A DNA stretch of 41,547 nt from Verrucomicrobiales bacterium (GCA_002715965.1 PBAL01000059.1:1-41547), one strand, 5' to 3'. Positions 909 through 34,460 are shown, counted from the first letter of the stretch. Made by a program: numbers and translations. Notes: generated from the letters alone by a model not told the origin.

Positions 909-920
909 GAATAAATCATC

Positions 921-15648: not shown

Positions 15649-16839
15649 GTGGCGAGCAAGCCTGCCATCCTGACCGTTGTTGAAAACCTGCCGGTGCCGT
15701 TGGATCGCCGGGTCTGGCAGGAGTCGTGCGCGTTGCGGGATGCGGGCTATGAAGTGGTGGTGATTTGTCCGCAAATGCGCGGCTATACCGAGCCGGAAGA
15801 GGTGATCGATGGCATCCATGTTTATCGCCACTGGATCAGTGACGAGGCGAGTGGGATCGGTGGTTTCATCCGCGAATACGGGTCGGCATTGATTGGCGAA
15901 ATGATGCTCGCGGTGAAGGTGTGGCAACGGCATCGCTTCGAGGTGGTTCATCTCTGCAACCCGCCGGACTTGTTGTGGATGGTTGCCCTGCCGTTCAAGC
16001 TGCTGTTTGGCGTGAAGGTGATCTATGACATTCACGATGTATGGCCGGAGATGTTCGAGGCGAAGTTCGGCCGGCGCGGTTTGTTGTATTGGGCGGTAAG
16101 GATCTTCGAACGCTGCACCTACTTCTGCACAAACATCGCCTTGGCGACAAACGAATCGGTCAAGGCCGTAGCAATGGAGCGTGGAGCGATGCGCGATGAA
16201 TGTGTCTATGTGGTGCGGACCTCACCGAAGATCGTTGCCGCGAATGCAACTGCTGATCCTTCACTACGCAAAGGCAGGAAATATCTCGTGGGTTATGTTG
16301 GCGTGATGGGCAACGCCGATGGTGTGGATCTGCTGTTGCGGGCGATCGCGCATGTCGTGCACGAGCTGAAACGGGACGATGTTCAATTTATGTTGATGGG
16401 AACCGGGCCGGAGTTCGATGAGTTGCAGAGCCTGAGGCGCGATTTGTATTTAGAAGAACACGTGGAAATGCCGGGCCGGGTTTCCGACGAATTCCTTTTC
16501 TCGGTGTTGAAGACCATGGATCTGGGTGTGTCCTCCGATCCGCGCAATGGCTACAACGATCACTGCACGATGAACAAGGTGTTGGAATATATGGCTTTTG
16601 GAAAAGCACAGGTGATGTTTGACCTGACGGAAGGGCGGGCATCAGCGGGGGAAGCATCGGCATACGTGCGGGAGAATGATCCAGCCCAATTGGGCGACGC
16701 CATGGTTGCGTTGTTGGACAATCCCGCAGAAAGAAAGCGGATGGGCATGATCGGGCGTGAACGATTGACGACGCAATTGAACTGGGAGCGTTCGGTGGAC
16801 CAGTTGTTGAAGGCATATCGGGCAGCGTTGAACGGTTGA
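15649..16839 (+). CDS. Family GT4 (GT-B fold) glycosyltransferase with a GTG start.
   Basis: The N-terminal half has the GT4 architecture. The C-terminal half reads VGYVGVMGNADGVDLLLRAI ... MLMGTGPE ... EHVEMPGRVSDEFLFSVLKTMDLGVSSDP ... NKVLEYMAFGKAQVMFD, matching the E-x7-E/EAMA-G-x-P donor-binding region. Its stop overlaps the exosortase start (ATGA at 16836-16839). Confidence 0.8.
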   Translation: MASKPAILTVVENLPVPLDRRVWQESCALRDAGYEVVVICPQMRGYTEPEEVIDGIHVYRHWISDEASGIGGFIREYGSALIGEMMLAVKVWQRHRFEVVHLCNPPDLLWMVALPFKLLFGVKVIYDIHDVWPEMFEAKFGRRGLLYWAVRIFERCTYFCTNIALATNESVKAVAMERGAMRDECVYVVRTSPKIVAANATADPSLRKGRKYLVGYVGVMGNADGVDLLLRAIAHVVHELKRDDVQFMLMGTGPEFDELQSLRRDLYLEEHVEMPGRVSDEFLFSVLKTMDLGVSSDPRNGYNDHCTMNKVLEYMAFGKAQVMFDLTEGRASAGEASAYVRENDPAQLGDAMVALLDNPAERKRMGMIGRERLTTQLNWERSVDQLLKAYRAALNG

Positions 16840-17864
16840 TGAGTGCGGATTCCCAAGGCGTTGCGAACGAGTCGTTGATGGCTGAGATCAGTGCGTTTCT
16901 CTCACGCTTGCCGGATAAGTGTGCGTTTGGTGTTCTGCTGCTGATGTGGGTGGCGCTGTTTCATTTCCTCGGCAACTCGACTCTGGGTTACGTCGATACG
17001 CCGAGCCTCTTTGGTTGGATGGATTATTCGTATTCCAACCGTGCGGATGACGAACACGGCTACTTCGTTCCGCTGTTGGTTCTGCTGATTCTCTGGTGGA
17101 AGAAAGATGAGTTGGAGAGCACGCCCAAGCGTGTCTGGGTGGGAGGATTGTTGCTGCTGTTCATCGCCATTGCGTTGCATCTGGTCGGGTTTCAAGTGCA
17201 ACAGGCACGCATTTCAATCGTTGCCTTCTACTCAGGGATCTACGCATTGATGGGCGTGGTGTGGGGACCGCATTGGTTGCGCGCGACTTTCTTCCCCTGG
17301 TTCCTCTTTGCGTTCGCCGTTCCGCTCGGCGCACTGAGTGACAATTTCAGTCAACCACTTCGAGTTGTGGCAACCGACGTCACAGTGGTGATTGCGAAGA
17401 TCGTGTTGGGTCTGCAGGTGATTCAGGAGGGGACGAGCATTCTGGATCCGGACGGCAAGTATTCTTATGAGGTGTCCGCGGCGTGCAGTGGGTTGAGAAG
17501 TTTGACCGCAGTGTTGGCGTTGTCATTTGTGTTCGGGTTCCTTTGGTTCAAGCAATGGTGGAAGCGCGGCTTCATGGTGTTGATGGCCTTTCCCCTCGCA
17601 GTTGCGAGCAACGTGGTGCGGTTGACGATGATCATCATTGCCGCGGATATATTCGGACAGGAGGCGGGGACCTTCGTGCACGACAATGCGATCCTCAGTT
17701 TGATTCCTTATCTGCCGGCGCTTGCCGGCTTGTTCGTGCTGGGTTGGCTGTTGGATTTGAAGCCGCGTGAGCAACGCGATGACAAGCGGCAAGTCCGCCT
17801 TCGACGCAAACGCAGGAAGCTGAAGGGCCGTTGGCCATACGTGGCGAGGAGGTCGCATGGCTAA
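16836..17864 (+). CDS. Exosortase (Xrt/EpsH family transpeptidase), 342 aa, 8-TM core.
   Basis: The catalytic Cys block is YEVSAACSGLRSLTAVLAL (C-S-G-x-R). The NxxR block is AVASNVVRLTMIII. Multiple TM helices are present. The C-terminus is basic. The gene is translationally coupled to both the upstream GT4 gene and the downstream EpsI gene. Confidence 0.85.
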   Translation: MMSADSQGVANESLMAEISAFLSRLPDKCAFGVLLLMWVALFHFLGNSTLGYVDTPSLFGWMDYSYSNRADDEHGYFVPLLVLLILWWKKDELESTPKRVWVGGLLLLFIAIALHLVGFQVQQARISIVAFYSGIYALMGVVWGPHWLRATFFPWFLFAFAVPLGALSDNFSQPLRVVATDVTVVIAKIVLGLQVIQEGTSILDPDGKYSYEVSAACSGLRSLTAVLALSFVFGFLWFKQWWKRGFMVLMAFPLAVASNVVRLTMIIIAADIFGQEAGTFVHDNAILSLIPYLPALAGLFVLGWLLDLKPREQRDDKRQVRLRRKRRKLKGRWPYVARRSHG

Positions 17865-18567
17865 GGGGCAGTTGATGTTCGTTGTCGCGGGTCTGATGAT
17901 TGTGCTGGCGGGCGGTGCGTTGGTTTACATGAAGGATCATCAACGCCTGGGTGAACCGGGTGTTCGCGTCGCGGATGTGTCAATCGAGGATGAGGAGGGT
18001 AATCGCGTTGGTGACACGAGTGTCTATCTGCCTGAGGTGGATGGCTTCAATTCCAAGGCGATGGAGATTCAGTCCGTGGTATACGAGTGGTTGCCGAAGG
18101 ACACGGTCTACGGCCGTCGCGTTTACCAGGCCGGGGATGGATTCTGGCTGGAATGCAATGTGGTGTTGATGGGCGCCGATCGCACGAGCATTCATCAGCC
18201 TCAGTACTGTCTGCCAGGGAGCGGTTGGCAGATTGTGGCGGATGAAGAGAACTCGCTTCGCATTGGGAAGCGGAAGTTGCCGGTCAATCGAATCGTCGCG
18301 CGAAAGGCGCTTGAGGCGAAGCACGGAACCGCCAGCAACGTTTCGGTGGTGATGCTGTATTTCTTCGTCACGAAAGGGGAGTGGACGGCTGATCACAACG
18401 AACGGATGTGGCGTCAGGCGGTGGAACAATTGACAACCGGTGTCCTGCAGCGTTGGGCCTATGTCGCCTGCTTCGCGCTCTGTCACGAGGGCAGGGAGGA
18501 CGCGACGACGGAGCGGCTTTTGCAGTTTCTTTCCCAGGCCGCACCGGAGTTCGTGGAACTCCCGTAA
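17857..18567 (+). CDS. Exosortase-associated EpsI-family protein.
   Basis: There is an N-terminal TM helix (LMFVVAGLMIVLAGGALVYM). The EpsI signature block is present (IHQPQYCLPGSGWQI, matching HxPExCLPGxGW). Size is about 236 aa. The gene overlaps the exosortase stop by 8 nt. Confidence 0.65.
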   Translation: MAKGQLMFVVAGLMIVLAGGALVYMKDHQRLGEPGVRVADVSIEDEEGNRVGDTSVYLPEVDGFNSKAMEIQSVVYEWLPKDTVYGRRVYQAGDGFWLECNVVLMGADRTSIHQPQYCLPGSGWQIVADEENSLRIGKRKLPVNRIVARKALEAKHGTASNVSVVMLYFFVTKGEWTADHNERMWRQAVEQLTTGVLQRWAYVACFALCHEGREDATTERLLQFLSQAAPEFVELP

Positions 18568-18629
18568 ATGTTAATCTTGCGTAAAGTGTCGGTATTCGGG
18601 GGGTAGATTGTATTTACGGTTGGCCCGCA

Positions 18630-20039
18630 TTGTGCGTAGCTAGGCGGTCGATGTTACGTCGCCAACGCCAGATCCAGACATCCCTCTCGCAGTTTGTTGA
18701 TGCGGGGTTGTTTGCCTTGGGATTTTGGCTGGCCCATTGGCTTCGTTCCAACGCGGTTGTTTATTTTCCCAATCTTTCTCCAATTTACGACTTCTCTGGC
18801 TACGTCTGGTTGTGGCTGTTCATTATCCCGGTAGCACCGCTCCTGTTGAAGGCTCAGGGCTTTTACAACCGGCCGATGCTGTTCTCTCGGCGGGAAACGG
18901 CCTGGGTTGCATTGAAGACGGGAACAATGCTGGCAATCGGTGTGATTTCCGTGCTGTTCATCATGCGCGAGGAACTGGCTCGATCGGTGATCATTCTCTT
19001 TGGCGCTATTGGCAGCGTCATGGTGGTGATCAAGGAAGAGCTGTTGCTGCGCTGGCATGGCAGCGAATTTGGTCAGGCACAGATGCGTCGGCGCGTGGTC
19101 CTGATTGGTGATGCGGACGAGACTGAAAAGATGCGGGAGGATTATCGGAAACGCCTGGGTGGTGCGTTGGAAGTGCTGGCTGAACTGCGAATTGATGAGG
19201 CTTCACCACAGAAGCTGAGTGAGTTGCTTCACGAACGTTCGGCGAACGGCGTGATTCTGAGCACGGGCCACGCGTTGTTTGATCAGGTGGAACGTGTGAT
19301 TGAGATCTGCGAGTTGGAAGGTGTTGAGGTTTGGCTGCTGGCGGATTTCTTTCGCACTCAAATCTCTCAAACCACGGTGGATGACATGATGGGGCGGCCG
19401 ATGCTGGTCTTTCGATCTGCTCCGGAAGCTTCGTGGCAGGGCGTTGCCAAGCAGGTGATCGATGTCGTGGGCGCAGCTGTGGCAGTGATTGGATTGTTCC
19501 CGTTTCTCGTGCTGTTTGGCTTGCTGGTGAAACTCACGTCAAAGGGTCCGATCCTCTTCCGGCAGGAACGAAGCGGCCTGAATGGTAAACCATTCACCAT
19601 GTTGAAATTCCGTACGATGGTTACGAATGCCGAGCAACGAAAAGCGGAGCTGGAATCGTTTAATGAGATGGAAGGCCCCGTCTTCAAGGTATCGAACGAT
19701 CCGCGCGTGACGGCCTTGGGAAGGTGGTTGAGGAAATACAGCATCGATGAGCTGCCGCAGTTGTGGAATGTCTTGAGAGGGGAAATGAGCCTGGTTGGTC
19801 CGCGACCGCTTCCGGTGGATGAAATCAAGCGCATCAATGACCCGGGTCATCGTCGACGCTTGAGCGTGAAGCCCGGTCTCACCTGTCTCTGGCAGATCAG
19901 TGGCCGCAACGAGGTGAACAGCTTCAAGGACTGGGTGACCCTGGATCTCGAGTACATCGACAACTGGTCGTTGTGGCTTGACTTAAAGATCCTGCTCAAG
20001 ACGATTCCGGTAGTCGTTCTCGGAACAGGCGCGAAGTAG
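18630..20039 (+). CDS. Exopolysaccharide-priming polyprenyl-phosphate sugar-1-phosphate transferase (WbaP/EpsB 'bacterial sugar transferase' family).
   Basis: Four N-terminal TM helices are followed by a cytoplasmic linker and a fifth TM helix. The C-terminal catalytic domain is KGPILFRQERSGLNGKPFTMLKFRTM ... DELPQLWNVLRGEMSLVGPRP ... PGLTCLWQISGR, which is canonical for the family. Confidence 0.85.
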   Translation: MCVARRSMLRRQRQIQTSLSQFVDAGLFALGFWLAHWLRSNAVVYFPNLSPIYDFSGYVWLWLFIIPVAPLLLKAQGFYNRPMLFSRRETAWVALKTGTMLAIGVISVLFIMREELARSVIILFGAIGSVMVVIKEELLLRWHGSEFGQAQMRRRVVLIGDADETEKMREDYRKRLGGALEVLAELRIDEASPQKLSELLHERSANGVILSTGHALFDQVERVIEICELEGVEVWLLADFFRTQISQTTVDDMMGRPMLVFRSAPEASWQGVAKQVIDVVGAAVAVIGLFPFLVLFGLLVKLTSKGPILFRQERSGLNGKPFTMLKFRTMVTNAEQRKAELESFNEMEGPVFKVSNDPRVTALGRWLRKYSIDELPQLWNVLRGEMSLVGPRPLPVDEIKRINDPGHRRRLSVKPGLTCLWQISGRNEVNSFKDWVTLDLEYIDNWSLWLDLKILLKTIPVVVLGTGAK

Positions 20040-20096
20040 TTCGCCTTTCCGCTCAGGTCTTGAGCATTCCGACTGCAAATCGCGGTCGATCATCCC

Positions 20097-21077
20097 ATGG
20101 CAGCCAAAAAGAAGAAAAAAACCAAAAAAACGTCAAAAAAACCCGTTTCCGTCGTCACTGGCGCAGCGGGCTTTCTTGGGTCTCATTTGGCAGATTTACT
20201 GTTAAAGAAGGGGCATAGAGTAATCGGTATCGATAACTTTGTGACAGGTAGGGTGGAAAACATCGATCATTTGGCTGGCAATGGTGATTTTCGGTTCATT
20301 CAGCAGGATGTGACCGAATTCTTGTTTCTCCAAGGTGATGTGAACCATGTTTGGCACTTCGCGTCGCCGGCCAGCCCGATTGATTATGCGCACTTGCCGA
20401 TTCAGACGTTGAAGGTGGGTTCATTGGGCACCCACAAGGCCTTGGGGCTGGCAAAGGAGAAGGGCGCTCGGTTCTTTCTGGCTTCGACGTCGGAGATCTA
20501 CGGCGACCCGCTGATTCACCCGCAAAACGAGGATTATTGGGGGAATGTGAGCACGATTGGCCCCCGCGGTTGCTACGACGAGTCAAAGCGTTTTGCTGAG
20601 GCGCTGGCGATGGCCTATCACCGGGAACACAAGGTTGAGACGCGGATTGTGCGGATTTTCAACACCTACGGTCCGCGCATGCGGTTGAAGGATGGACGGG
20701 TTGTTCCAGCCTTTGTCAGTCAAGCGTTGGAGGGCAAACCCATCACGGTGTTCGGTGATGGTTCGCAGACGCGAAGTTTCTGCTATTGCTCGGATCTCAT
20801 TGATGGGATCTATCGGTTGATGATGAGTGACTACGATCTGCCGGTGAACATTGGCAATCCGAACGAGATGACGATCCTTGAATTTGCCCAGGAGATCATC
20901 CGCGCGACCAGCTCGAAAAGCCGGATCATTCGCAAGCCATTGCCCACGGATGATCCCAAGCAACGCAAGCCCGACATCACCCGGGCAAAGTCTATTCTCA
21001 AGTGGCGGCCCAAGGTTAAACTGGCGGACGGTTTGGAGCGGACGATCGACTACTTCAAGAGGCGCATTGAGTCTTAG
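20097..21077 (+). CDS. UDP-glucuronate decarboxylase (UDP-xylose synthase; extended SDR) with an unusual Lys-rich N-terminal extension.
   Basis: The Rossmann block is [53 protein letters not shown]. This matches the UXS pattern (TGGAGFxGSHL...DNFFTGRKxNxxHxxxxPxFExIxHDV). The YxxxK catalytic region is [11 protein letters not shown]. The N-terminus reads [16 protein letters not shown]. Confidence 0.8.
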
Positions 21078-21241: not shown

Positions 21242-23116
21242 ATGCCCAAATCATTCCTCTGCCTGGACTTCGGTGCGTTCACGATCAAATGCGCCGAATT
21301 TGAACCCAACGAACAGGGTTCCCTCCGCCTCCAACGTTACGCACTCAAGGAGCTTGGTCCGGAAGGTTTCAAGGAAGAAGGCCGGGACGAAATGGTCACC
21401 GGCGCGATCAAGGAGATGATTGAAGACGCGGGGTTTGCCGCGACCGGGATCAACGTTTGTGCGCCCGGGTTTCAGGTCTTTTCAAAGTTCGTCAAACTGC
21501 CGTCGGTCGAAGCATCCAAGGTCAATCAAATCATTCAGTTTGAAGCGCAACAGAATGTGCCCTTTCCACTGGACGAAGTGGTGTGGGATTATCAGATCCT
21601 TGGCACAACTCCGAACGAAGAACTGGAGATCCTTCTCGTCGCCATCAAGAACGAGGTGGTGGAAAGTATTTTCAAGGTCGGTGAAGGTGCCGGTCTGGAT
21701 CTGCAACTGGTTGATGTTTCATCGGCTGCGCTTGCGAATGCCTACCGTTTCAACTACGGCGATAGTGAAGGTTGCGTGATACTTCTCGATATCGGCGCGA
21801 AGTCCAGCACCTTGCTCTTCTTCGAAGGCGGTCGCGTATTCAGTCGAAGTATCAACATTGGTGCCAATGCAATCACGCAGGACTTCGCGGCTGAATCAAA
21901 ACTGGATTGGGACGAAGCCGAGCGGCTCAAGATCGAGGAAGGCTTTGTGAGTCTGGGTGGTGCCTACGAAGAGCCGGACAATCCAAACCAGGCGTTGATT
22001 TCAAAGATCGCGCGTCAGGTCATGACTCGTCTGCACATCCAGATGAATCAGACCATTCAGTTCTATCGTGGTCAGCAAGGCGGTTCACCTCCCGAGAAGC
22101 TTTACCTTGCTGGTGGTGCATCGTTGCTTCCTTACACCGCCCAGTTCTTCGCGGAAAAACTGAACATCCCCGTCGATTACTTCAACCCCTTCCGCAACAT
22201 TCAGATTGATCAGGAAATCAACCTCGAAGAAATCGCCAAAGTCGCGCACTCATTCGGTGAGGTTGTCGGACTCGGCATTCGCAATCTCGCTCAATGTCCG
22301 GTGGACCTGAATCTCATGCCGGTAAGTCACGTTCGCCGGCAGCAGTTCAACGCCAAGCGGATTTACTTCGTGGCTTCGATCATCTGCGTTCTCCTGACCA
22401 TCCTCTCGTTCGGTTGGTATTACGGATGGGTGGCATCCAACAAGGAGAAAAGTCTGGCTGACTTGAAGAGCAAATTCAGCCCCCTCCAAACGGCCTCCAC
22501 CACGCTGAAAGGAAGGCAGAGTGAATTCAATGCAGCCAAGTCCGAGGCGGACCAATATGTCACCCTGATCAACACCAAGACTCGCTGGGCCAAGCTGTTC
22601 CGATCCATCCAGGGCATCCTTCAGCAGTCGCAAACAAATCACGGAGTGAAGAGCTTCGATCCCACCATCGTTACCAATGACATTCTGGCACGGGTCTGGA
22701 TCGAGAAATTCACCGGTGGCAAGGCGCCTGAAGCCAGCTTCGGTTTTGAAATGGAAGGCGAAGGTGACATGGAAGAGGAGATGGACGGAGGCGAAGGCGA
22801 AGGGGGCGGTGAGATGGGCTTTGCCTCCCAAATCGGCATGGCTGCGCCGGTTGGCAAGACCGTGGCTGCGCCACCGCCCGGAACGGAACGGGTGGATTAC
22901 TTGAACCTGAAATGCCGGGCATTGAACCTGTCGAGTCTCTCGCCCTCGGCAAACGCGGAATTCTGCTTTGCGCTCCAGGAAGCATTTCAGACGAACGGCC
23001 TGTTCACGCAGGATGAAACCGGCCTCGTTGGAAACATCCAGCAGGTAGGCATGACCAACGACACCTTTGCTTTCAACATGGTGCTCCGCTTGGTTGAAGG
23101 GCTCGTGGTGAACTGA
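21242..23116 (+). CDS. PilM-PilN fusion protein (type IV pilus / T2SS inner-membrane alignment, actin-like ATPase fold) with an acidic Gly/Glu-rich insert.
   Basis: The N-terminal ~360 aa read FLCLDFGAFTIKCAEFEP ... ILLDIGAKSSTLLFFEGGRVFSRSINIGANAIT ... LYLAGGASLLPY, which are the PilM/FtsA-like phosphate-1, phosphate-2 and adenosine motifs. The PilN-like segment follows: NLMP...RRQQFNAKRIYFVASIICVLLTILSFGWYYG, with a TM helix and a periplasmic coiled coil. The C-terminal insert is EGEGDMEEEMDGGEGEGGGEMG. Confidence 0.75.
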   Translation: MPKSFLCLDFGAFTIKCAEFEPNEQGSLRLQRYALKELGPEGFKEEGRDEMVTGAIKEMIEDAGFAATGINVCAPGFQVFSKFVKLPSVEASKVNQIIQFEAQQNVPFPLDEVVWDYQILGTTPNEELEILLVAIKNEVVESIFKVGEGAGLDLQLVDVSSAALANAYRFNYGDSEGCVILLDIGAKSSTLLFFEGGRVFSRSINIGANAITQDFAAESKLDWDEAERLKIEEGFVSLGGAYEEPDNPNQALISKIARQVMTRLHIQMNQTIQFYRGQQGGSPPEKLYLAGGASLLPYTAQFFAEKLNIPVDYFNPFRNIQIDQEINLEEIAKVAHSFGEVVGLGIRNLAQCPVDLNLMPVSHVRRQQFNAKRIYFVASIICVLLTILSFGWYYGWVASNKEKSLADLKSKFSPLQTASTTLKGRQSEFNAAKSEADQYVTLINTKTRWAKLFRSIQGILQQSQTNHGVKSFDPTIVTNDILARVWIEKFTGGKAPEASFGFEMEGEGDMEEEMDGGEGEGGGEMGFASQIGMAAPVGKTVAAPPPGTERVDYLNLKCRALNLSSLSPSANAEFCFALQEAFQTNGLFTQDETGLVGNIQQVGMTNDTFAFNMVLRLVEGLVVN

Positions 23117-23134
23117 CAATCGAAAGGAAACCCA

Positions 23135-24184
23135 ATGGTCTGGCTCAAACGTAACGTATTTATTGTAATCAGTGGAGTGGTCGCGGTGGCGCTCCTTGCT
23201 GGTGCTGTCATGTTCGCCCAGGGCGCGAAAAAGAAACAGGAAGATGCCGTAGCCAGTCTCTCCACCTACACCAATCAGGTGAAATCCCTCATGAGTGCGC
23301 GTCCGTTTCCAAATTCGGGAACGATTGACAAGGTCAAGAGCGAAACCGAAGTGATTCAAACGTTCGCCAAGAATGCTGAAGCACTGTTCGAATACAAGCC
23401 GCCCGTCCGCATGAACGGTCAGGAATTCAAGATTCATCTCTTGAAATCCTTGTTGGATTTGCAGAAGGAAGCCACCAACAACAACGTTCAGATTCCGAAC
23501 CAGTATCAGTTTACTTTCGGGCATCTGGTGCCAATGCCAAACCTGCCGCCGTATGGCATCGAAGACCTTCAGGAGCGCCTGGATGACGTCCAGCACATCT
23601 GCAAGATCCTCTATGAGTCAAAGGTGCATGCGTTGGAGCGATTGGAGCGCGTTCCCGCCTATGTCAAAGAGCCTGGCCGTGGCACGCTCACATACACCTA
23701 CTGGCCGCGGACGAATCTCACCACCTCCGACGCGGTGTTTCGAAGCATTCCCTACGTGTTTAGCTTCCGTGGATTCACCTCCGAACTCACGCAGGTTTTG
23801 AACCGACTGGCCAGCTCGGATCGGTTCTACGTGGTTCGCAAGGTGGAATTGGCCCAAACATCCGGACGCCGTCGAGCTGTCGCCGGGATGGGTATGATGG
23901 ATGACGGCGAAGGGGAGGACGGTGGGGGCGAAGCACCCGCTCCGGTCGCCGCACCTGGGCAGAACCTCACACTCCAGCAGCGCATGCGTCTCATGCAGCA
24001 GCGCGCTCAACAGCAGGCCGCCATGAAGAATGCCGGTGCTGCGCCCAGCCTCCGCACGGTGGTTGATGAACGGCCGCTACGCGTCACGATCGTCGTCGAT
24101 ATCGTGAAACTGATCCGAAACAAGAAGGAAGATGGTCCCGGAGGTCCCGGCATGCCAGGAGGTCCGGGGATGGCAGGCCCCTGA
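23135..24184 (+). CDS. PilO-like bitopic periplasmic protein. The call rests on position and topology only.
   Basis: There is an N-terminal TM helix (VFIVISGVVAVALLAGAVMFA). A coiled-coil/beta region follows. It lies between the pilMN-like and pilP/Q-like genes. Low-complexity segments are present (DDGEGEDGGGEAPAPVAAPG and C-terminal GPGGPGMPGGPGMAGP). Confidence 0.4.
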   Translation: MVWLKRNVFIVISGVVAVALLAGAVMFAQGAKKKQEDAVASLSTYTNQVKSLMSARPFPNSGTIDKVKSETEVIQTFAKNAEALFEYKPPVRMNGQEFKIHLLKSLLDLQKEATNNNVQIPNQYQFTFGHLVPMPNLPPYGIEDLQERLDDVQHICKILYESKVHALERLERVPAYVKEPGRGTLTYTYWPRTNLTTSDAVFRSIPYVFSFRGFTSELTQVLNRLASSDRFYVVRKVELAQTSGRRRAVAGMGMMDDGEGEDGGGEAPAPVAAPGQNLTLQQRMRLMQQRAQQQAAMKNAGAAPSLRTVVDERPLRVTIVVDIVKLIRNKKEDGPGGPGMPGGPGMAGP

Positions 24185-24193
24185 TTAATTTTC

Positions 24194-25174
24194 ATGGAAT
24201 TCTTAAAGAATCACTACGAGAAGATCATTCTCAGTCTCACGTTGGCTTTGGTTACCGCCGGTGCCGTGTGGTTGGCCTTGCAATCGGTGCAGGTGCGGAC
24301 AGAAATTGAAGGTCTGGGGCAAATGGCTGCCCCGCAAGTGCGGGTCGATACAAACTCCGTCACCAACGTGTTCCTGACTGCATTGACCAACGGCCGAGCT
24401 CCTCAGCAAGTGGATTTCGATGGTGCGGACCATAAGATCTTCAATGCCGAAAAGATTCTCGAACGGACGCTCGACAAAGTGAAATACCCGGCCGATAAGC
24501 TTGGTCCTAAATCCCTTGAAATAAAAGAAATCAGGTCACTTCCCCTTACGATTCGGGTCGAACAGCGGACGGTCCGCAGCCGCACTTCGGTTTATGCCTA
24601 CATGCGGCCCGCCTACGAACAAGGTCGATATGCTGTTGAAAAGAAGACTTCGATTCGTGAAGGAAAGGCTGTTCGTTTCGGGCGCACTTACACCCTGCAG
24701 CGCCAAATCGTGGTGAACGTGGAGAAGATCAATGTAGATCCCGAGAATCCGGACACTCTTTCCGTTGACTTTACGTTCAGTATGCTCGGTGGCGCGCCAG
24801 AGCAGTTCACTGTGAAAGCCAAGGAGACTTGGACCCGCGATTTGGATTTCGAAGCCGACTTATATTACCCGCCGGAGCAGAGAGACTTTCTTAAGACCCG
24901 TGTCGGGCATATTTTCACCTTTGGTGGAGACACCAATCAGGTCATCCAGATCAACGAGGAAGGATTCACTGTTCGGGCGTTCTCCAATCAAAAGCGTGTG
25001 ACGGTTACGATGAAAAACCCCGTTGCAGCCATCGCGCCAGCCGCGGTCCAGCAGAAACCCGCTGCGACCGCACCTTCCGCGATGTCCACGGGAGCGCCTG
25101 GGGCAGGTGTGGTGCCTGCCACGGCAAACCGCCAAACTCCCCCAGTGGCGGCCAATCAGAAACCAACCCCTTGA
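24194..25174 (+). CDS. PilP-like or hypothetical bitopic protein. The call rests on position and topology only.
   Basis: There is an N-terminal TM helix (IILSLTLALVTAGAVWLAL). The middle is beta-rich. The C-terminus is Pro/Ala/Thr-rich. The gene sits immediately upstream of the secretin gene, as in pilMNOPQ operons. Confidence 0.3.
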   Translation: MEFLKNHYEKIILSLTLALVTAGAVWLALQSVQVRTEIEGLGQMAAPQVRVDTNSVTNVFLTALTNGRAPQQVDFDGADHKIFNAEKILERTLDKVKYPADKLGPKSLEIKEIRSLPLTIRVEQRTVRSRTSVYAYMRPAYEQGRYAVEKKTSIREGKAVRFGRTYTLQRQIVVNVEKINVDPENPDTLSVDFTFSMLGGAPEQFTVKAKETWTRDLDFEADLYYPPEQRDFLKTRVGHIFTFGGDTNQVIQINEEGFTVRAFSNQKRVTVTMKNPVAAIAPAAVQQKPAATAPSAMSTGAPGAGVVPATANRQTPPVAANQKPTP

Positions 25175-25213
25175 TTTCTTCGGCGATTTCTGCAAAATCC
25201 GCCAACCGGTTCA

Positions 25214-28042
25214 ATGAGAAATACTTACATATTTGCCGTCTGCCTATTTTCGGCAGGCTTTTTGGGCGCACAAACAGGCGGCGTTCCGCAATTTGACCCG
25301 GTAGCGGCAGCCGAGGAAGAAGCGCTGAGGCGCGCGGAGACCAGGATGATCATGGACCTCAACCTCACCAAGGCTGAGCATTTGAAAGACGCTAAGGATT
25401 ACTCCTCTGCCTCCGTATACTACGAGGAAGTACTCAGCTTGGCGCAAAAGCTCGGCAATCTGGCTGCTGTCCAAGAAGTTGTAGAGGAAGCACGCGAAGG
25501 ATTGGTTCACAGCCGCTTGCAGAAAGCGTGGGAGTTTCAGGACGAGAAGAAGTTTACCGAAGCCGATCAGGAGGCGTCAAAGGCACTTACCGTTGTCGGC
25601 GAAAACTCAAAACTCCTGAAATTCCGCAAGTTTAACGCGTCGATTGAAGCCGCACACCAAGGTCGAATCCCGAGCCAAGAGGTGGCGGACAGCCTTCAAA
25701 ACATCCAAGACAATAAAGTAAAAGTCTTGCAGCTGATCAGGGATGGACGGGCATACTATCAGCTCGGCCAATACGAAGAAGCGGAGGCAAAACTCAAGGA
25801 GGCCATAAATATCGACCCGCATAGCGACCTCGCCTACTACTACCTGAGACTCATCCTCGAAGCGGAGTACGACGAAGAATCCAGAAAACGGGAGCACAAA
25901 TTTCAAGAACGCGTCGTGGAGGTCTCAAAGGCTTGGAACAAGGAAACACGAACGGACCTTCCAACCCCCAACCCGTATTACCGTACAAATTCCCAAATAC
26001 CCTTCCTGACCCACACCAGTAAAGGGGCGCAGTATATTCGTCGCAAGCTGCATGAAATCACCATTCCAGAAGTCGCCTACGATTCACTGACCTTGGATGA
26101 AGTGGTTGCCGATCTGATCGACTCAGTCAAAAGGGAAGATCCCGAAGGCAAAGGTTTGAACTTCCTGATCAACTCACATGCTTCCGACGTCGTGTTGCAA
26201 GGTGGCGGCGGATTGGGCGGCGGCGCCGACCTTGGGCTTGATGGCGGACTGGATGGCGGCGGTGGCGGCGGTGGCGCAGCTGCCGTTCCTGTTCTCGATG
26301 CCATGGGCAACCCCATTGCCGGTGGTCCCGGGCTGGCGCCAGGTGCGGGCCCGCCAGCGGCAGACCTCGCCTCTGTGTTGATTGACATTCAATTGCCCCT
26401 CTTCGATCTCAAGCTGGAACACGTTCTTGACGTCATTGTCAAGACTGCGGATCAGCCGATCAAATACATCATTGAGGAATACGCCATCGTCTTCACACCA
26501 AAGCTCGCGGATCAGGCGCCGCTTTACACCCGAATCTTCAAGGTCAACCCGGACACATTTCGGCAAGGTCTGGAAGGTGTTGCCGGGCGCACACCCATTA
26601 TTGCCAGCGCTGGTGGTGCCGGTGGCGGCGGCGGTGGCGGTGGCGGTGGCGGTGGCGGCGGCGGTATCGGCGGCGGCGGTGGCGGCGGCCAAGGCGGTGG
26701 TCAGAGTGGATTCTCGCTCGCGGGCGTCAATGTCGCTGGAGGTATCGGCGGCGGCGGTGGTGGTGGTGGCGCGCAAGGCGGTGGCGGTGGCGGTGGCGGT
26801 GCGGCAGGAGGCCAGGGTGCCGGATTACGAGGTATCACCTCTCCGAACGACATGACTGTGGTCAATGACGAAGTGCGGGCCTACTTCAATGCTGCGGGTG
26901 TTCAAAACCTTGCGGTTGCTGCCGGTGCACAGGCAACTCAGGTGTTTTTCAATGACCGGAATGGTCTCTTGCTGGTCCGGGCCACGCTACAGGATCTGGA
27001 CATTATCCAGCAGGCAATCGAGTTATTGAATGTTACACCTCCTCAGGTCTTGGTTGAGTCCAAGTTCGCTGAGATTTCCCAGAACGACAACAAGGGATTT
27101 GGATTCGACTGGAACATCGGCAACTCGCTTCTGCTCGACCAGACGCTCGGTATTCAGGCTGGCACAGCGCCTTCATTCTTGGGGACTCCGACGGCTGCGA
27201 ATCCCAGCGGCATCTTCCCGTTTCCAGGCACTCCGATTTTTAGCCGCGGATCAGACGGCGATCTGACCTCCTCTGCAATTCGGCAATCCGCACCTTCCCT
27301 CGCCACTCTCACTGGAATTCTCACCGACCCCCAATTCCGCACGATCATCCGTGCGTTGGAACAACGCGACGGAACTGACGTTTTGACGGCACCTCGGGTT
27401 ATCACGATCAGCGGACGTCAGGCTCAGATCCAGGTGACGGATATTCCGACCATTGTGACTGACGTGCAGGTTGGGCAGCAGGGCGGTGGCGGTGGCGGTA
27501 TCGGCGGTGGCGCGGGTGCGGTCAGCGTTGCCCTGACCCCCACGCTCCAGCAGATCGCAACCGGACCCGTCCTTGACGTACTGCCAACTGTAAACTCGGA
27601 CGGATACTCAATCAACATGTCCTTGATCCCCTCAATCACCGAATTCGTAGGTTATGATGATCCGGGCCCCTTCGCGGTTGTTGCACAGTCGGTTGGTGGT
27701 GGCGTGGTCGGTTTGCCTCTGCAGGCCACACTACCGCTCCCCCGAAGTCGTGTGCGCCAAGTTGTGACCAGTTGCGTGGTCTGGGACGCCCAGACCGTCG
27801 TGTTGGGGGGGCTGATCTCCGAAACCGTTTCCAACACTCGGGACAAAATTCCCGTTCTCGGTGACCTTCCGCTCTTCGGCAAGCTCTTCCGGTCGGAGCA
27901 CAAGCAGACTCGAAAGTCCAATCTGGTGATTTTTGTTACGCCGACCATCATCGACCCTGCTGGCAATCGGGTTCACACCGATGAAGACATGCCCTTTGCC
28001 AAGGCGCCTCCTCCTCAACCTGCGCTCATTCGCCGTCGTTGA
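25214..28042 (+). CDS. Secretin (PilQ/GspD family outer-membrane channel), 942 aa, with an N-terminal TPR-like region and three long poly-Gly inserts.
   Basis: A signal peptide is present (MRNTYIFAVCLFSAGFLGAQ). TPR-like repeats occur at about aa 40-215 (e.g. AYYQLGQYEEAEAKLKEAINIDPHSDLAYYYL). The secretin domain is canonical: GTDVLTAPRVITISGRQAQIQVTD ... VVLGGLISETVSNTRDKIPVLGDLPLFGKLFRSEHKQTRKSNLVIFVTPTIIDP. Gly runs of up to about 50 residues are present. Confidence 0.85.
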   Translation: MRNTYIFAVCLFSAGFLGAQTGGVPQFDPVAAAEEEALRRAETRMIMDLNLTKAEHLKDAKDYSSASVYYEEVLSLAQKLGNLAAVQEVVEEAREGLVHSRLQKAWEFQDEKKFTEADQEASKALTVVGENSKLLKFRKFNASIEAAHQGRIPSQEVADSLQNIQDNKVKVLQLIRDGRAYYQLGQYEEAEAKLKEAINIDPHSDLAYYYLRLILEAEYDEESRKREHKFQERVVEVSKAWNKETRTDLPTPNPYYRTNSQIPFLTHTSKGAQYIRRKLHEITIPEVAYDSLTLDEVVADLIDSVKREDPEGKGLNFLINSHASDVVLQGGGGLGGGADLGLDGGLDGGGGGGGAAAVPVLDAMGNPIAGGPGLAPGAGPPAADLASVLIDIQLPLFDLKLEHVLDVIVKTADQPIKYIIEEYAIVFTPKLADQAPLYTRIFKVNPDTFRQGLEGVAGRTPIIASAGGAGGGGGGGGGGGGGGGIGGGGGGGQGGGQSGFSLAGVNVAGGIGGGGGGGGAQGGGGGGGGAAGGQGAGLRGITSPNDMTVVNDEVRAYFNAAGVQNLAVAAGAQATQVFFNDRNGLLLVRATLQDLDIIQQAIELLNVTPPQVLVESKFAEISQNDNKGFGFDWNIGNSLLLDQTLGIQAGTAPSFLGTPTAANPSGIFPFPGTPIFSRGSDGDLTSSAIRQSAPSLATLTGILTDPQFRTIIRALEQRDGTDVLTAPRVITISGRQAQIQVTDIPTIVTDVQVGQQGGGGGGIGGGAGAVSVALTPTLQQIATGPVLDVLPTVNSDGYSINMSLIPSITEFVGYDDPGPFAVVAQSVGGGVVGLPLQATLPLPRSRVRQVVTSCVVWDAQTVVLGGLISETVSNTRDKIPVLGDLPLFGKLFRSEHKQTRKSNLVIFVTPTIIDPAGNRVHTDEDMPFAKAPPPQPALIRRR
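26198..26282 (+). repeat. Gly-codon (GGC/GGT) simple-sequence tract inside the secretin gene.
   Basis: Read directly: ggtggcggcgg ... ggcggcggtggcggcggtggc encoding GGGGLGGGADLGLDGGLDGGGGGGG. Confidence 0.6.
26608..26812 (+). repeat. Interrupted (GGCGGT)n tandem hexamer arrays encoding poly-Gly inside the secretin gene.
   Basis: 26608-26700 reads ggtggcggcggcggtggcggtggcggtggcggtggcggc. 26741-26812 reads ggcggcggtggtggtggtggcgcgcaaggcggtggcggtggcggtggcggtgc. A non-repeat gap lies at 26701-26740. Confidence 0.7.
27491..27527 (+). repeat. (GGCGGT)n tract, the third poly-Gly insert of the secretin gene.
   Basis: Read directly: ggcggtggcggtggcggtatcggcggtggcgcgggtgcg. Confidence 0.6.
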
Positions 28043-28193
28043 TTCGAATAGCTTGGTTTGCAGGTGACTCTCAATTGCCCCGCAAAACCAGCAAAAGAGA
28101 CGATTTTCAGCCTCTACGTAGTAATCTGTATCGCACCTCACCCAAGAAACCGTAGACAACAAATTGGGCCTCTGATAACTCTTAGTTGACCAT

Positions 28194-30083
28194 ATGATCG
28201 TCCTGCGCAACCCCTTGTCATTGTTGGTCTTGCTCATCCTTGGGCTTGGCTTTTCGTGGCATTGTGAGGCGCAGAATACCTTCGCCAAACAGGCGGGGGA
28301 GTACTACATCTCCGGGCAGATGGGCGCCGATCAGGTATTGCCGGACGTGTCGATAAATGGGCAGGGCGGAATCATCGTGTGGCAGGATAATTCCGTTGAT
28401 GGCGCGGGCACTGGCATCTGCGCACAGCGTTTGAATGCAAATTTGTCAGGGGAGAACAATGCGTTCCAGGTAAACTCGATCGACGCCGGCAACCAAGGTA
28501 AGCCGCAGGTTCGAATGTTGCCTGATGGAGGTGCGGTTTTTGCGTGGGAAGGCGGAGAACCGGGCCAGCAGAACATTTATGTTCGCTATATGGATGCAGC
28601 GGGCACCTTTGCCGGGCCGGATATCCAAGTGAACCAATACAACACTGATTTTCAGATTCGGCCAAAGCTTGCGGTGGCGAGCGACGGCAAGGTCATGGTC
28701 GTCTGGTCCAGTTCAGGGCAGGATGGTCATTTTCGATCCGTGTTTGGTCGGGTGATCGCTGCCGACAAAAGTTTTGCTGGCAATGAATTCCAGATCAACG
28801 TCACCACACACCTCAACCAGCGCACGCCTGATGTTGCGGCTTTGGACGATGGCAGATTCGCCGTTGTCTGGATCACTGAGAAGTATCTTGGATTGAATAA
28901 CACCGGTGGCGGGCAATACGCCATCGATGTGCTTGGACGATTGCTGGATGATACTGGCGCCCCAGTGACTGGCGAGATCTCGATCGAGAATTCCCAGCAC
29001 TTGTGTGCCAACCCCTCGGTGAGTTCTTCTCAACGCGGATTCGTTGTCGTATGGGGGCAACGAAACGTTGCGAGCAGAGGGGGTGGTTGGGATGTCTACG
29101 GCGCTGGTTTCGACTTGTCGGGAACCCGGCTCGCGGATCCATCGCGACTTAACACTTATACCTTTGGTGATCAGTATGCCCCAAAGCTTGCCCGGTCCGG
29201 TGCAAACCTCCTCGCAGTTTGGTCGAGCATGGGGCAGGACTCTTCCTACGAGGGTGTGTTTGGTTCCGTGCTGACCGATAACGGTGCGGCGTTCGGTGAG
29301 GAGCTGGCGATCAATTCCGAAACTCGCAGCCGTCAGCAGCATCCGGATATTGAAGGAGATGACACGGGTAGGTTTCTTGTGACGTGGAGCGGCTATACGA
29401 TCGGCACGGGAGATCAAATGGATATCAAGGGGCAGAGGTTGGCCAATGCAGCTCCCTTGCCTGTACTGCCCGCTCCGTACTTGAGTGCTCTCAGCCAGAC
29501 CCGGATTTCCGTTTCATGGGCGCCACTTGCGGGCTTCACCGTTCAGCATTACGAGGTTTACGTCGATGATGCTGCCGTTCCCCTGACTACGACGGACAGC
29601 CATCTCTCTGTCACTGGCCTGGTTCCGGGCTCTTCTCATTCCATCAAATTAGGGTATCGCTTGAATGACGGCCGGCAGGGTGCGTTCTCGCTGCCTTCCA
29701 CGCTGTCGACCTGGGGAGAGGATTTGAACTTTGACGGATTGCCAGATGATTGGCAGGCCCGTTATTGGACCGGCAGCGCCTCGTCTTACCCTGCTGTTTT
29801 TCTGGATAGCGATGGAGACGGCGCATCTAACGTAGACGAATTTCTTGCCGGCACGGACCCGACGGATTCCGATAGTGTGCTGAAGTTATACATCTCCCGG
29901 AACGGGAATTCGCTGTGGCTCAACTGGAATTCCATGCCGGGCAACCTCTATCAGGTGCAGAGGTCCGCCGATATGCGCAATTGGCAGGATGTCGGAAACG
30001 CGCGCTTCGCCGTGGACGCCACGGACACATTGTTGATTGGAAACCAAGCTGCCGCAATTTACCGGATCATCCGAGTCAGGTGA
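28194..30083 (+). CDS. Secreted multidomain protein: seven-repeat beta-propeller-like region, FN3-like domain, DSDGDG calcium-binding-type motif, and the conserved ~65-aa C-terminal module.
   Basis: A signal peptide is present (MIVLRNPLSLLVLLILGLGFSWHCEA). Seven ~50-aa repeats each carry a G-hh-VVW-x(5-8)-G core: GGIIVWQDNSVDG, GAVFAWEGGEPG, KVMVVWSSSGQDG, RFAVVWITEKY, GFVVVWGQRNVASRGG, NLLAVWSSMGQD and RFLVTWSGYTIGTGD. An FN3-like segment (RISVSWAPLAGFTVQHYEVYVD...SHSIKLGYRLNDG) follows. Next comes DSDGDGASNVDEFLAGTDPTDSDS. The C-terminus is LWLNWNSMPGNLYQVQRSADMRNWQDVG...AAAIYRIIRVR. Confidence 0.6.
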   Translation: MIVLRNPLSLLVLLILGLGFSWHCEAQNTFAKQAGEYYISGQMGADQVLPDVSINGQGGIIVWQDNSVDGAGTGICAQRLNANLSGENNAFQVNSIDAGNQGKPQVRMLPDGGAVFAWEGGEPGQQNIYVRYMDAAGTFAGPDIQVNQYNTDFQIRPKLAVASDGKVMVVWSSSGQDGHFRSVFGRVIAADKSFAGNEFQINVTTHLNQRTPDVAALDDGRFAVVWITEKYLGLNNTGGGQYAIDVLGRLLDDTGAPVTGEISIENSQHLCANPSVSSSQRGFVVVWGQRNVASRGGGWDVYGAGFDLSGTRLADPSRLNTYTFGDQYAPKLARSGANLLAVWSSMGQDSSYEGVFGSVLTDNGAAFGEELAINSETRSRQQHPDIEGDDTGRFLVTWSGYTIGTGDQMDIKGQRLANAAPLPVLPAPYLSALSQTRISVSWAPLAGFTVQHYEVYVDDAAVPLTTTDSHLSVTGLVPGSSHSIKLGYRLNDGRQGAFSLPSTLSTWGEDLNFDGLPDDWQARYWTGSASSYPAVFLDSDGDGASNVDEFLAGTDPTDSDSVLKLYISRNGNSLWLNWNSMPGNLYQVQRSADMRNWQDVGNARFAVDATDTLLIGNQAAAIYRIIRVR

Positions 30084-30084
30084 T

Positions 30085-31527
30085 ATGAAGCGAATCCTCC
30101 AGACAATCTTGTTTGTGCTCCTGTTTGGCATCTTCACGCGGGATGCGAAGGCGTTTTCCTTGCTGGGTCCATTCGCAGCGTACCAATCCACCGACTTGGG
30201 ATACAACACCGGGGTGAACGGGGTGGATGTCGGTGGGCCGATGAACATAGGTGAGGAGTATCGAATCAACTATCGCGGACTCACCTACGCGTTCGATGCG
30301 ACCTTCCTCACCTATTTCGGCAATCAGGGGATTGCAGCGGTTACGGAAGCCATCACGATTTTGAATCAGATTCCCGGTGCGACTGTCATCGATCAGACTC
30401 TGGGGACGTTCCCTCTGCAATCGAAAGGACCAAAGAATTTTGCCGCTGAGACCCTGGGCGTGTTCGATATCAAGTCTCTCACGATGGGAATCCTGTTTGC
30501 GCAGATGGGAGTCGGTAACCCAGAGCGTTGGACATGGACTTTGCGCGATGAGGACACCACCACCGGGATTTACACCGTTATTCAGCGGAACTTCGACCCG
30601 GGCACCTGGCTGCCTTCGGCACTTGTCAACGGGTCCTTGTATACCTACCGCATCGAGGATCCGGTATTTCCCGTTCCCATCGTTGACTTTGCTGACGCCA
30701 TCGAAGTGTTGGCTGATCCGTTGGATTTCGACTTTACCTCGGTTGCGGGTGCGGAGAATCCGGATCCTCTGCGAGGGGGCAATCTGGCTGCAGGCGAATA
30801 CTATACCGGCATTACGCGTGACGATGCGGCTGCCCTCGCCTACATCTACAGCGAACGGAATTCAAACTTTGAAAACATAGTTGCCAATGCCCAGCTGGCG
30901 ACCAACGCGGGTGGACCTTGGCAACCGTTTGGTTTTACGAATGCCCTGTTCACCAACGAGCTGGTGGATCTGGCGCTTCGACCTGGCATCGGGAAGGTTG
31001 ATTTCGAAAGGGTGTCGTTTGATTCCCTGCTCGGAACATCGATTGACATTACGAACACCTTTACCGACACCTTCATTACCAATGGGATTGCCTCGAACCA
31101 AGTCGTAGAGAGGGCCATTACCCTGCCCGACATCGTTTTTGCCGCGTCAGATCTGGGAACTGTGGCCGGCGTCCCGGTCTTCTACGAGCGAACCAGCGGT
31201 AGCGGCGGAGGGGGGGGCGGTGCCGGCGGGGGGACTGGTGGATTTGTCAACAACTCTGCCCTGAACACCGCGGTGGGTGGCGGTGGCGGTGGCGGTGGCG
31301 GTGGCGGTGGCGGTGGTTTGGATGGACCAGGTCAAATTCAACCGACGGTGATCATTACATTCAGTCGATTGGGGCCGTACATCGTAAATACCACGCCAAA
31401 CTTCCTTACAGAAGCCACGGGGACACGTGGGCCCCGATGGGGGCATTTTGACACGGCAACCATCCACGCAATTTTTCCGGACGGGCAATCGATACGAGAT
31501 ATCGAGCAGGGCATTCACTTTCCATGA
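30085..31527 (+). CDS. Secreted hypothetical protein with a poly-Gly insert and no shared C-terminal module. The start is taken at the Met after the upstream stop; the ORF nominally opens at 30037.
   Basis: A signal peptide is present (MKRILQTILFVLLFGIFTRDAKA). The body is Gly/Thr/Asn-rich and includes SGSGGGGGGAGGGTGGF...GGGGGGGGGGGGGGLDGPG. The stop overlaps the next gene's ATG (ATGA at 31524-31527). Confidence 0.5.
   Translation: MKRILQTILFVLLFGIFTRDAKAFSLLGPFAAYQSTDLGYNTGVNGVDVGGPMNIGEEYRINYRGLTYAFDATFLTYFGNQGIAAVTEAITILNQIPGATVIDQTLGTFPLQSKGPKNFAAETLGVFDIKSLTMGILFAQMGVGNPERWTWTLRDEDTTTGIYTVIQRNFDPGTWLPSALVNGSLYTYRIEDPVFPVPIVDFADAIEVLADPLDFDFTSVAGAENPDPLRGGNLAAGEYYTGITRDDAAALAYIYSERNSNFENIVANAQLATNAGGPWQPFGFTNALFTNELVDLALRPGIGKVDFERVSFDSLLGTSIDITNTFTDTFITNGIASNQVVERAITLPDIVFAASDLGTVAGVPVFYERTSGSGGGGGGAGGGTGGFVNNSALNTAVGGGGGGGGGGGGGGLDGPGQIQPTVIITFSRLGPYIVNTTPNFLTEATGTRGPRWGHFDTATIHAIFPDGQSIRDIEQGIHFP
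31201..31320 (+). repeat. Poly-Gly-encoding simple repeats containing a G8 homopolymer (31210-31217) and a (GGCGGT)6 array (31281-31316). The array is the same hexamer as in the secretin gene.
   Basis: Read directly: ggagggggggggcggtgccggcgggggg ... ggtggcggtggcggtggcggtggcggtggcggtggtttgg. Confidence 0.65.
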
Positions 31528-34439: not shown

Positions 34440-34460
34440 TCGGGACTGATTACGGCAGAC

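Follow-up and report, generated by a model that had tools for sequence, protein, structure and literature searches.

Which machine is encoded where a secretin gene lies directly behind relatives of the type IV pilus alignment genes, in a locus without pilin or motor ATPase genes? The question is raised by four consecutive open reading frames (ORF1-ORF4) at positions 21242-28042 of a 41,547-nucleotide stretch of DNA from a Verrucomicrobiales bacterium (GCA_002715965.1 PBAL01000059.1:1-41547), hereafter called the window. As a contig, the window comes from a marine metagenome (Tara Oceans). Identical proteins are on record, annotated as hypothetical, for a "Verrucomicrobiales bacterium" metagenome-assembled genome (MAG), the same locus is present on a 107-kb scaffold, and the nearest relatives are MAGs of Limisphaerales, Pedosphaera and other Verrucomicrobiota. 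Our analysis leans towards the reading that the cluster supplies a type IV filament-type machine, of the MUL2 kind known from Akkermansia, with its alignment scaffold and its outer-membrane channel, and that this machine probably serves surface or glycan capture. The cluster is a divergent relative of a known system and not a new class of machine.

A preliminary description had placed a PilM-PilN fusion, an O-like protein, a P-like protein and a secretin with a tetratricopeptide repeat (TPR) N-terminus at these coordinates, and the ORF calls agree exactly in position and order:

21242-23116, + strand: ORF1, 624 amino acids (aa), PilM fused to a putative PilN/GspL-like membrane and periplasmic part; homologue of the Amuc_1101 family
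23135-24184, + strand: ORF2, 349 aa, bitopic protein in the PilO position, Amuc_1100 family
24194-25174, + strand: ORF3, 326 aa, bitopic protein, predicted to be PilP/GspC-like
25214-28042, + strand: ORF4, 942 aa, secretin with a TPR-containing N-terminus; homologue of the Amuc_1098 family

The four genes are separated by gaps of 18, 9 and 39 bp. Low-complexity inserts occur in all four products, Gly/Glu/Asp/Pro/Ala-rich in ORF1, ORF2 and ORF4 and as a Pro/Ala-rich C-terminal tail in ORF3; both a composition scan and reading of the sequences bear out the Gly/Glu/Pro low complexity described earlier for every component. A 448-aa antisense ORF (22250-23596, - strand), which sits wholly within ORF1 and ORF2, was judged spurious.

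Residues 8-348 of ORF1 matched Pfam PilM_2 (PF11104; 1.8e-39), the score against TIGR01175 (154.8 bits) exceeded the cut-off of 133, and PilM structures in the PDB were reached at 2e-35 to 5e-35 (3jc8_M), 9e-24 (2ych) and 9e-20 (5eox). The parts of ORF1 are as follows:

21263-22285, + strand: actin-like cytoplasmic PilM domain (residues 8-348)
22301-22321, + strand: motif VDLNLMP of the PilN N-terminal type (residues 354-360), immediately behind the PilM domain
22361-22417, + strand: the sole predicted membrane helix (residues 374-392; hydropathy scan)
22694-23110, + strand: predicted periplasmic end domain with a beta-beta-alpha-beta-beta order (residues 485-623) and a disordered Gly/Glu insert within it

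The VDLNLMP motif aligns with the PilN-derived ARINLLP of an engineered P. aeruginosa PilM-PilN chimera (5eou), and its N, L and P are invariant among 76 homologues. An AlphaFold model of residues 354-624, built on the 76-sequence alignment, reached a predicted local distance difference test (pLDDT) score of 83.3; in it, a long helix at residues 361-465 (model residues 8-112) takes in the membrane segment and continues as a coiled coil. The low-complexity stretch proper comprises residues 501-528 (22742-22825), and the low-confidence region of the model is wider. Across 80 related loci, the median length of the ORF1 relatives is 624 aa. The traits by which a PilN is recognised are all present in ORF1: the INLLP-type peptide and a single membrane helix, followed by a coiled coil and a predicted ferredoxin-like periplasmic domain. 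With moderate confidence, we regard ORF1 as a PilM-PilN fusion, as had been described before, with the PilM domain assigned by profile and PDB matches and the putative PilN part by motif, membrane helix and predicted fold. In its layout ORF1 matches GspL, which likewise joins a cytoplasmic domain of the actin-like type, through one membrane helix, to a ferredoxin-like domain in the periplasm. The hhalign comparison of the ORF1 and ORF2 families, made as a test of N/O paralogy, gave no match beyond the membrane helix.

ORF4 carries a Pfam Secretin domain at residues 714-914 (27353-27955; 4.9e-32), and its long N-terminal region contains one clear TPR (TPR_11, 6e-8; residues 178-211, 25745-25846), so that the two Pfam matches corroborate the earlier view of a secretin with its own TPR N-terminus. 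This N-terminal region is weakly similar to the TPR pilotins PilW (3e-5) and Tgl (1.7e-3), and it occupies the place of AMIN domains, none of which was found in ORF4 by Pfam and NCBIfam scans. Three poly-Gly tracts, with runs of at least 15 consecutive Gly, lie at aa 330-388, 460-499 and 506-541 (window 26201-26836). Among generic NCBIfam models, the best match of ORF4 was GspD (TIGR02517; 154 bits, cut-off 351), while PilQ (TIGR02515) gave 105 bits (cut-off 284) and MshL (TIGR02519) gave 122.6 bits (1.6e-35; cut-off 250.2) over profile positions 3-290 of 290.

The specific family matches point to Akkermansia. ORF1 matched the NCBIfam family Amuc_1101_fam (NF045709) over residues 3-464 at 6e-138 and 461 bits (equivalog cut-off 650), three times its generic PilM score. 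ORF4 matched Amuc_1098_fam (NF042912) at 6e-96 and 322 bits (cut-off 750) and is colinear with it, with residues 28-447 on profile positions 22-373 (2.8e-32) and the secretin part, residues 574-921, on positions 424-804. ORF2 matched Amuc_1100_fam (NF038287) over its full length at 8e-18 and 65 bits (cut-off 180), and still did so at 2.7e-13 after removal of the membrane anchor; in addition, Pfam PF28028 (Amuc_1100) was found on 11 of 11 ORF2 homologues.

ORF2 begins with an N-terminal anchor, made up of a cytoplasmic start and a membrane helix; then come a helical stretch, an alpha/beta domain with a Gly/Asp/Glu insert, and a Gly/Pro tail. The family shares a near-invariant cytoplasmic start, M-x-W-[IL]-K-[RK]-N-L (window 23135-23160), just ahead of the membrane helix, and an acidic Gly-rich insert that keeps its position in all homologues while its sequence varies. 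In Pfam searches of all family members (E<=10), no PilO or T2SSM match was obtained except T2SSM_b at 0.12 in one relative. Amuc_1100 is a TLR2 agonist. Its structure has been described as PilO/PilN-like (bioRxiv 10.64898/2025.12.30.696933). ORF2 is best described as a putative PilO-like protein, a label taken from its membership of the Amuc_1100 family; its bitopic topology would fit a PilO.

In ORF3, residues 11-29 form a membrane helix and residues ~100-272 (24491-25009) a beta-rich domain; the tail, Pro/Ala-rich as read from the sequence, is disordered in the predicted model. Its family has a conserved N-terminus, MEFLKNHYEKIILS (window 24194-24235), just ahead of the membrane helix. The best matches of the predicted model were GspC and PilP, suggesting that ORF3 is PilP-like; the protein is anchored by a membrane helix, as is GspC, and not lipidated as PilP is. 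Both ORF2 and ORF3 thus begin with conserved cytoplasmic residues, and these could be additional ligands of the PilM domain. By gene position ORF3 corresponds to Amuc_1099, to which its sequence match is weak, and this equivalence is not established. Taken together, the earlier PilM/N/O/P assignments held in profile searches for PilM, and also for the secretin, whereas N, O and P have no Pfam match; the N- and P-like labels come from predicted folds, and the O-like label from the Amuc_1100 family.

Amuc_1098-1102 are abundant envelope proteins of Akkermansia (PMC5332112). The cluster, now called MUL2, is regarded as a type IV pilus-like system and has been described as important for mucin acquisition, and its synteny extends to aquatic Akkermansiaceae and often to other Verrucomicrobiales (PMC13174399; bioRxiv 10.64898/2025.12.30.696933). 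The window cluster has the same order as MUL2: a PilM-type protein (about 610-620 aa, with a membrane/periplasmic extension), an Amuc_1100-type protein, a protein in the Amuc_1099 position and a secretin, the last with a long helical/TPR N-terminus. Furthermore, the only specific NCBIfam matches of the four window proteins are to the corresponding Amuc_1101, Amuc_1100, Amuc_1099 and Amuc_1098 families. The M-N fusion, the TPR-secretin and the odd O- and P-position proteins are traits of this family, since they are common to the MUL2-type cluster. The first two had been presented as atypical features; the NCBIfam matches indicate that they are not confined to the window.

Several observations weigh against a MUL2-type machine and limit how closely the two clusters can be equated. 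All four NCBIfam scores lie under the equivalog cut-offs, which indicates distant relatives of MUL2 in a different taxonomic order (Limisphaerales-type MAGs) and not orthologues as NCBI strictly defines them. ORF3 matched Amuc_1099_fam (NF042425) weakly, at E 0.062 and over its N-terminal 85 residues only; among its relatives, 7 of 39 matched that family at E<=0.01 (best 0.0023), and no other family matched. In Akkermansia, the gene for Amuc_1102/MUL2A, an archaeal-pilin-like protein, precedes the PilM-like gene. In the window no such gene stands beside ORF1; a UXS-like gene is found there, and 21242-38489 has no free ORF space, although a copy may lie elsewhere in the genome. At the level of Pfam, no PilN, PilO, PilP, GspL or GspM match was obtained for the window proteins, and no PilN or GspL profile matched ORF1 or any of 23 members of its family (E<=10). 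Foldseek comparison of the model of the C-terminal part of ORF1 with the PDB gave nothing significant, and ORF2-family profiles built from 12 and 63 sequences reached no Amuc_1100 chain among PDB sequences (E<=10). Lastly, the analogy with mucin uptake is an extrapolation across orders.

Does the window represent a stable gene arrangement? At least 543 species-representative genomes encode an ORF1 relative, and synteny was read in the best 80 loci (labelled L with a number below), in which ORF1 identity was 48-83%. These loci come mostly from Verrucomicrobiota/Limisphaerales MAGs. The tblastn counts were taken over the loci that extend far enough, and O5 is the first gene downstream of the secretin:

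ORF2: 68 of 68 loci reaching it
ORF3: 56 of 63 loci reaching it
ORF4 (secretin): 47 of 47 loci reaching it
O5: 42 of 42 loci reaching it
UXS-like gene: 48 of 67 loci reaching it
Exopolysaccharide (EPS) priming transferase gene: 41 of 60 loci reaching it
EpsH gene: 31 of 50 loci reaching it

A more distant locus, reached through an ORF3 profile search, has the same gene order.

The cluster could also be an ordinary type IVa pilus (T4aP) operon, a divergent pilMNOPQ for twitching, adhesion or DNA uptake with no special link to glycans or to its neighbours. No prepilin motif was found in the window, scanned in six frames, or in the 2.9 kb that follow it. Searches by tblastn with E. coli HofB, HofC and PpdD gave no match in the 41.5-kb window or in 2.9 kb downstream of it, and the window ORFs scanned had no Pfam T2SSE, T2SSF or N_methyl match. 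These results agree with the earlier statement that no pilin, prepilin peptidase or PilB/PilT is encoded in 41 kb, and extend it by 2.9 kb. Filament-machine genes lie within 10 kb of the cluster in only a few of the 80 relatives:

L066, 8592-9680, - strand: T2SSE ATPase gene, 362 aa, divergent from ORF1
L060, 159-3162, - strand: T2SSF platform gene and a prepilin gene
L031, 14979-15785: DUF1559/N_methyl prepilin gene between the secretin gene and O5
L053, 7664-8479: DUF1559/N_methyl prepilin gene between the secretin gene and O5
L075: one prepilin gene near the cluster

The absence of a pilin and an ATPase at the locus is therefore real and typical of the family, and the few relatives with T2SSE, T2SSF and prepilin genes indicate that the lineage owns such parts. 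In classical T4aP organisms such as P. aeruginosa, pilin and ATPase genes lie outside the pilMNOPQ operon. The preliminary description had taken the lack of a nearby pilin or ATPase as a sign of a repurposed export conduit. This step is weak, because classical pilMNOPQ operons stand alone, because relatives occasionally carry T2SSE, T2SSF and prepilins, and because the traits called atypical are common to the Akkermansia Amuc_1098-1101/MUL2 cluster.

The same facts are compatible with a classical pilus operon, as are the M-(N)-O-P-Q gene order, the PilM score above the TIGR01175 cut-off, the PilN N-terminal motif and the secretin. The window further shares with the PilMNOPQ systems of Pseudomonas, Myxococcus and Thermus the bitopic, putatively N- and O-like proteins with a coiled coil and an alpha/beta domain, the predicted PilP-type beta domain and a location apart from the pilin and ATPase genes. 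However, M and N form one polypeptide in the window, the P-like protein is anchored by a helix and is no lipoprotein, the secretin has a TPR in place of AMIN domains and scores far under the PilQ cut-off (105 against 284 bits), N, O and P are undetected by Pfam, and low-complexity inserts run throughout. Classical operons have neither an M-N nor a TPR fusion and show no strict linkage to O5-O7 (described below), and the closest specific families are the MUL2 proteins, for which a role in mucin acquisition is reported (PMC13174399). A classical T4aP is thus distinctly unlikely, and a MUL2-type scaffold accommodates these features better.

The mannose-sensitive haemagglutinin (MSHA) pilus offers a further comparison. 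Its genes, mshI-J-K-L-(M)-N, form an operon that combines the assembly-platform set, the secretin and the TPR protein MshN. The window secretin spans the MshL model end to end; in contrast, its score is under the MshL cut-off, the TPR is fused to the secretin here, and no NCBIfam match to MshI, MshJ or MshK was found for ORF1-ORF3.

A second tight block, of genes for signal-peptide proteins, begins 151 bp after ORF4:

28194-30083, + strand: O5, 629 aa; signal peptide, repeated V-x-W blades, a weak FN3-like stretch, TSP3-like DSDGDG and a ~70-aa C-terminal domain
30085-31527, + strand: O6, 480 aa from the called ATG (480-496); signal peptide and a poly-Gly tract
31524-34439, + strand: O7, 971 aa; signal peptide, Asn/Thr-rich, same kind of C-terminal domain
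34461-38489, + strand: O8, 1342 aa; signal peptide, InlB B-repeat-like domain and the common C-terminal domain

Four signal-peptide proteins thus do follow the cluster directly, as the preliminary description had it, although at up to 1342 aa they are large rather than giant. O5 matched TSP3_bac at 0.0017 and O8 matched Flg_new_2 at 3.9e-12; the poly-Gly tract of O6, again with a run of at least 15 Gly, lies at aa 408-436 (31258-31344). O6 and O7 had no match in Pfam, NCBIfam or the PDB, O5 had none among PDB sequences, and none of O5, O6 and O7 matched 7DSZ (Amuc_1102-like fold) there. The ~70-aa C-terminal domain is common to O5, O7 and O8 (29850-30080, 34191-34436 and 38262-38486), with the consensus L.W....Y.vq.S.dL..W....YYRi and often a final R-x-R; in O5 and O7, the DSDGDG TSP3-like motif precedes it. 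The domain has no family in Pfam or NCBIfam. A hidden Markov model of it, built from O5 homologues, matched O8 at 4e-4 and also matched unrelated ORFs upstream of the cluster in L028 (1526-3553) and L075 (1000-3591). It is kept in most O5 relatives and lacking in five O5 homologues, and it may serve throughout the lineage for sorting or anchoring.

O5-O7 are conserved partners of the cluster. O6 gave tblastn matches in 42 loci, against 43 for O5; O7 was matched in 21, a number bounded by the ends of the fetched loci, and O8 lies past the fetched flanks. Loci whose upstream side is rearranged still retain O5-O7. This linkage supports the earlier impression of a tie between the secretin cluster and the secreted proteins. 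It is tempered, on the one hand, because a 5'-3' exonuclease gene intervenes between the secretin gene and O5 in about 20 of 37 relatives (for example L088, 13752-14693; 5_3_exonuc_N, 1.7e-45) and, on the other, because the sampled loci all belong to a single broad lineage, in which the synteny may be inherited. The exonuclease gene is absent from the window, where the 151-bp gap takes its place.

The downstream block raises the alternative of a conduit like the type II secretion system (T2SS), in which ORF1 (PilM-N), ORF2, ORF3 and ORF4 would act as GspL, GspM, GspC and GspD to export the Sec-dependent proteins O5-O8, and the common C-terminal domain might be the recognition signal. The presence of that domain on O5, O7 and O8 would suit such a conduit, as would the GspC-like anchoring of ORF3 (not lipidated as PilP), the GspD model as the best generic match of ORF4 (154 bits, against 105 for PilQ), and the occurrence of O5 and O6 in every locus reaching them, even with the upstream side rearranged. 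However, GspC and GspL were matched at the level of fold only, no T2SSL or T2SSM profile matched, and the GspD score is far from its cut-off (154 against 351 bits). The cytoplasmic domain is of the PilM_2 type and not T2SSL, and no gene for GspE, GspF, a pseudopilin (GspG-K) or GspO is present in the window or in most relatives. The putative signal domain also occurs on the unrelated ORFs of L028 and L075 and is missing from the five O5 homologues, and the exonuclease gene parts the secretin from O5 in the relatives counted above. In addition, the cluster of Akkermansiaceae is reported to have housekeeping genes as neighbours, and not O5-O7 (PMC13174399). We therefore regard a T2SS-like exporter as unlikely, and retain the MUL2-type scaffold as the preferred reading, in which O5-O7 would probably be accessory surface or periplasmic components, or cargo.

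Upstream of the cluster, the genes are of a different kind:

15649-21077: upstream module of a family 4 (GT4) glycosyltransferase, an XrtA-like exosortase (EpsH), EpsI, an EPS priming glycosyltransferase and a UXS-like epimerase

Two of these genes exceeded family cut-offs, the exosortase with 113.5 bits against TIGR02602 (cut-off 105.55) and the priming glycosyltransferase with 383.8 bits against TIGR03025 (cut-off 295.55). The UXS-like gene adjoins ORF1 at a distance of 164 bp. What had been called an EPS locus is made up of these five genes, and scans of the window revealed neither Wza, Wzc and Wzx nor a synthase. Nor was any PEP-CTERM cargo seen in the window. O5-O8 were considered as such cargo and ruled out by reading their C-termini, which end in ...YRIIRVR, ...IHFP, ...YYRISYVP and ...YYRAFIP and show neither a PEP motif nor a membrane-helix tail.

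With this module directly upstream, the cluster might be the outer-membrane exit for EPS, or for exosortase-processed (PEP-CTERM) proteins of the EpsH/EpsI/priming-transferase module, its TPR-secretin acting as the TPR-plus-barrel proteins of synthase-dependent EPS systems do. Synteny with the UXS-like, priming transferase and EpsH genes in many relatives, and a module in the same order in L088, speak for such a link. It is nevertheless broken in roughly a third of relatives, while the core never is, and Wza, Wzc, Wzx and synthase genes are missing from the window, as are PEP-CTERM tails from O5-O8. Also against the link, UXS and ORF1 have a terminator-like and a promoter-like site between them, although the counts of such sites in the region are no higher than in shuffled sequence. 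To our knowledge, no secretin exports polysaccharide. An EPS exit is highly improbable in our assessment.

In the window, O5-O7 and the exosortase/EPS module occupy the place in which Akkermansiaceae are reported to have housekeeping neighbours (PMC13174399). In one further reading, the scaffold and O5-O7 might form a self-contained envelope machine that needs no classical prepilins, with O5-O7 replacing the Amuc_1102-type subunit as the working part, outside the cell or in the periplasm, and the secretin serving polysaccharide capture and import (selfish uptake in marine Limisphaerales/Pedosphaeraceae) or the export of proteins with the C-terminal domain, possibly in coordination with the exosortase/EPS module. 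We consider this machine quite improbable. What is new relative to the Akkermansia cluster is that the Amuc_1102-like gene is missing at the locus and that conserved partners have been gained.

For the MUL2-type scaffold that we favor, the domain assignments suggest the following arrangement. The PilM domain of ORF1 would lie in the cytoplasm and be tied in cis, through the PilN motif and a single helix, to a periplasmic coiled coil and an end domain of the GspL/PilN/PilO type, which may pair with bitopic ORF2. ORF3, held by one N-terminal helix as GspC is, would dock its GspC-HR/PilP-type beta domain on the periplasmic N-domains of ORF4, judging from its predicted fold. The TPR N-terminus of ORF4 would replace the AMIN domains and may do the work of a separate TPR pilotin. 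The motor ATPase, platform protein, prepilin peptidase and filament subunits would have their genes elsewhere in the genome. Selfish uptake of laminarin is reported for aquatic Pedosphaeraceae (PMC13174399). By analogy with this uptake and with MUL2, the role of the machine is most likely the capture and acquisition of surfaces or glycans and not twitching.

This study also provides insights into the Akkermansia system itself. The Amuc_1098-1102/MUL2 cluster is medically prominent and mechanistically obscure, and Amuc_1099 and Amuc_1100 are still termed uncharacterized in recent work (PMC13174399). The window extends the system to free-living marine Verrucomicrobiota, and the number of genomes with an ORF1 relative indicates that the four-gene scaffold of the MUL2 type is widespread in free-living Verrucomicrobiota of the Limisphaerales type. 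The models offer assignments for its parts: the PilM-type protein as a predicted PilM-PilN (GspL-like) fusion, the protein in the Amuc_1099 position as the probable bearer of a GspC/PilP-type secretin-docking domain, and the TPR region as an integral part of the secretin. In marine glycan-degrading Verrucomicrobiota, O5-O7, which are absent from the Akkermansia locus, are candidates for the machine's working end. If the machine is indeed linked to selfish polysaccharide uptake, a secretin machine would be tied to import rather than export.

Some other genes of the window stand further upstream. Three + strand ORFs at 249-8481 code for a membrane protein of 219 aa, a protein of 711 aa weakly similar to flotillin and one of 1766 aa with DUF3686 (1.4e-181), DUF7902 and an AAA domain; these ORFs are apparently unrelated to the secretin cluster, and their adjacency to it is not conserved. 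A sulfatase gene follows at 8595-10001 on the - strand (Sulfatase, 7.9e-59), and L039 also has sulfatase homologues upstream of its cluster. Sulfatase genes near the cluster fit with a glycan-degrading lifestyle.

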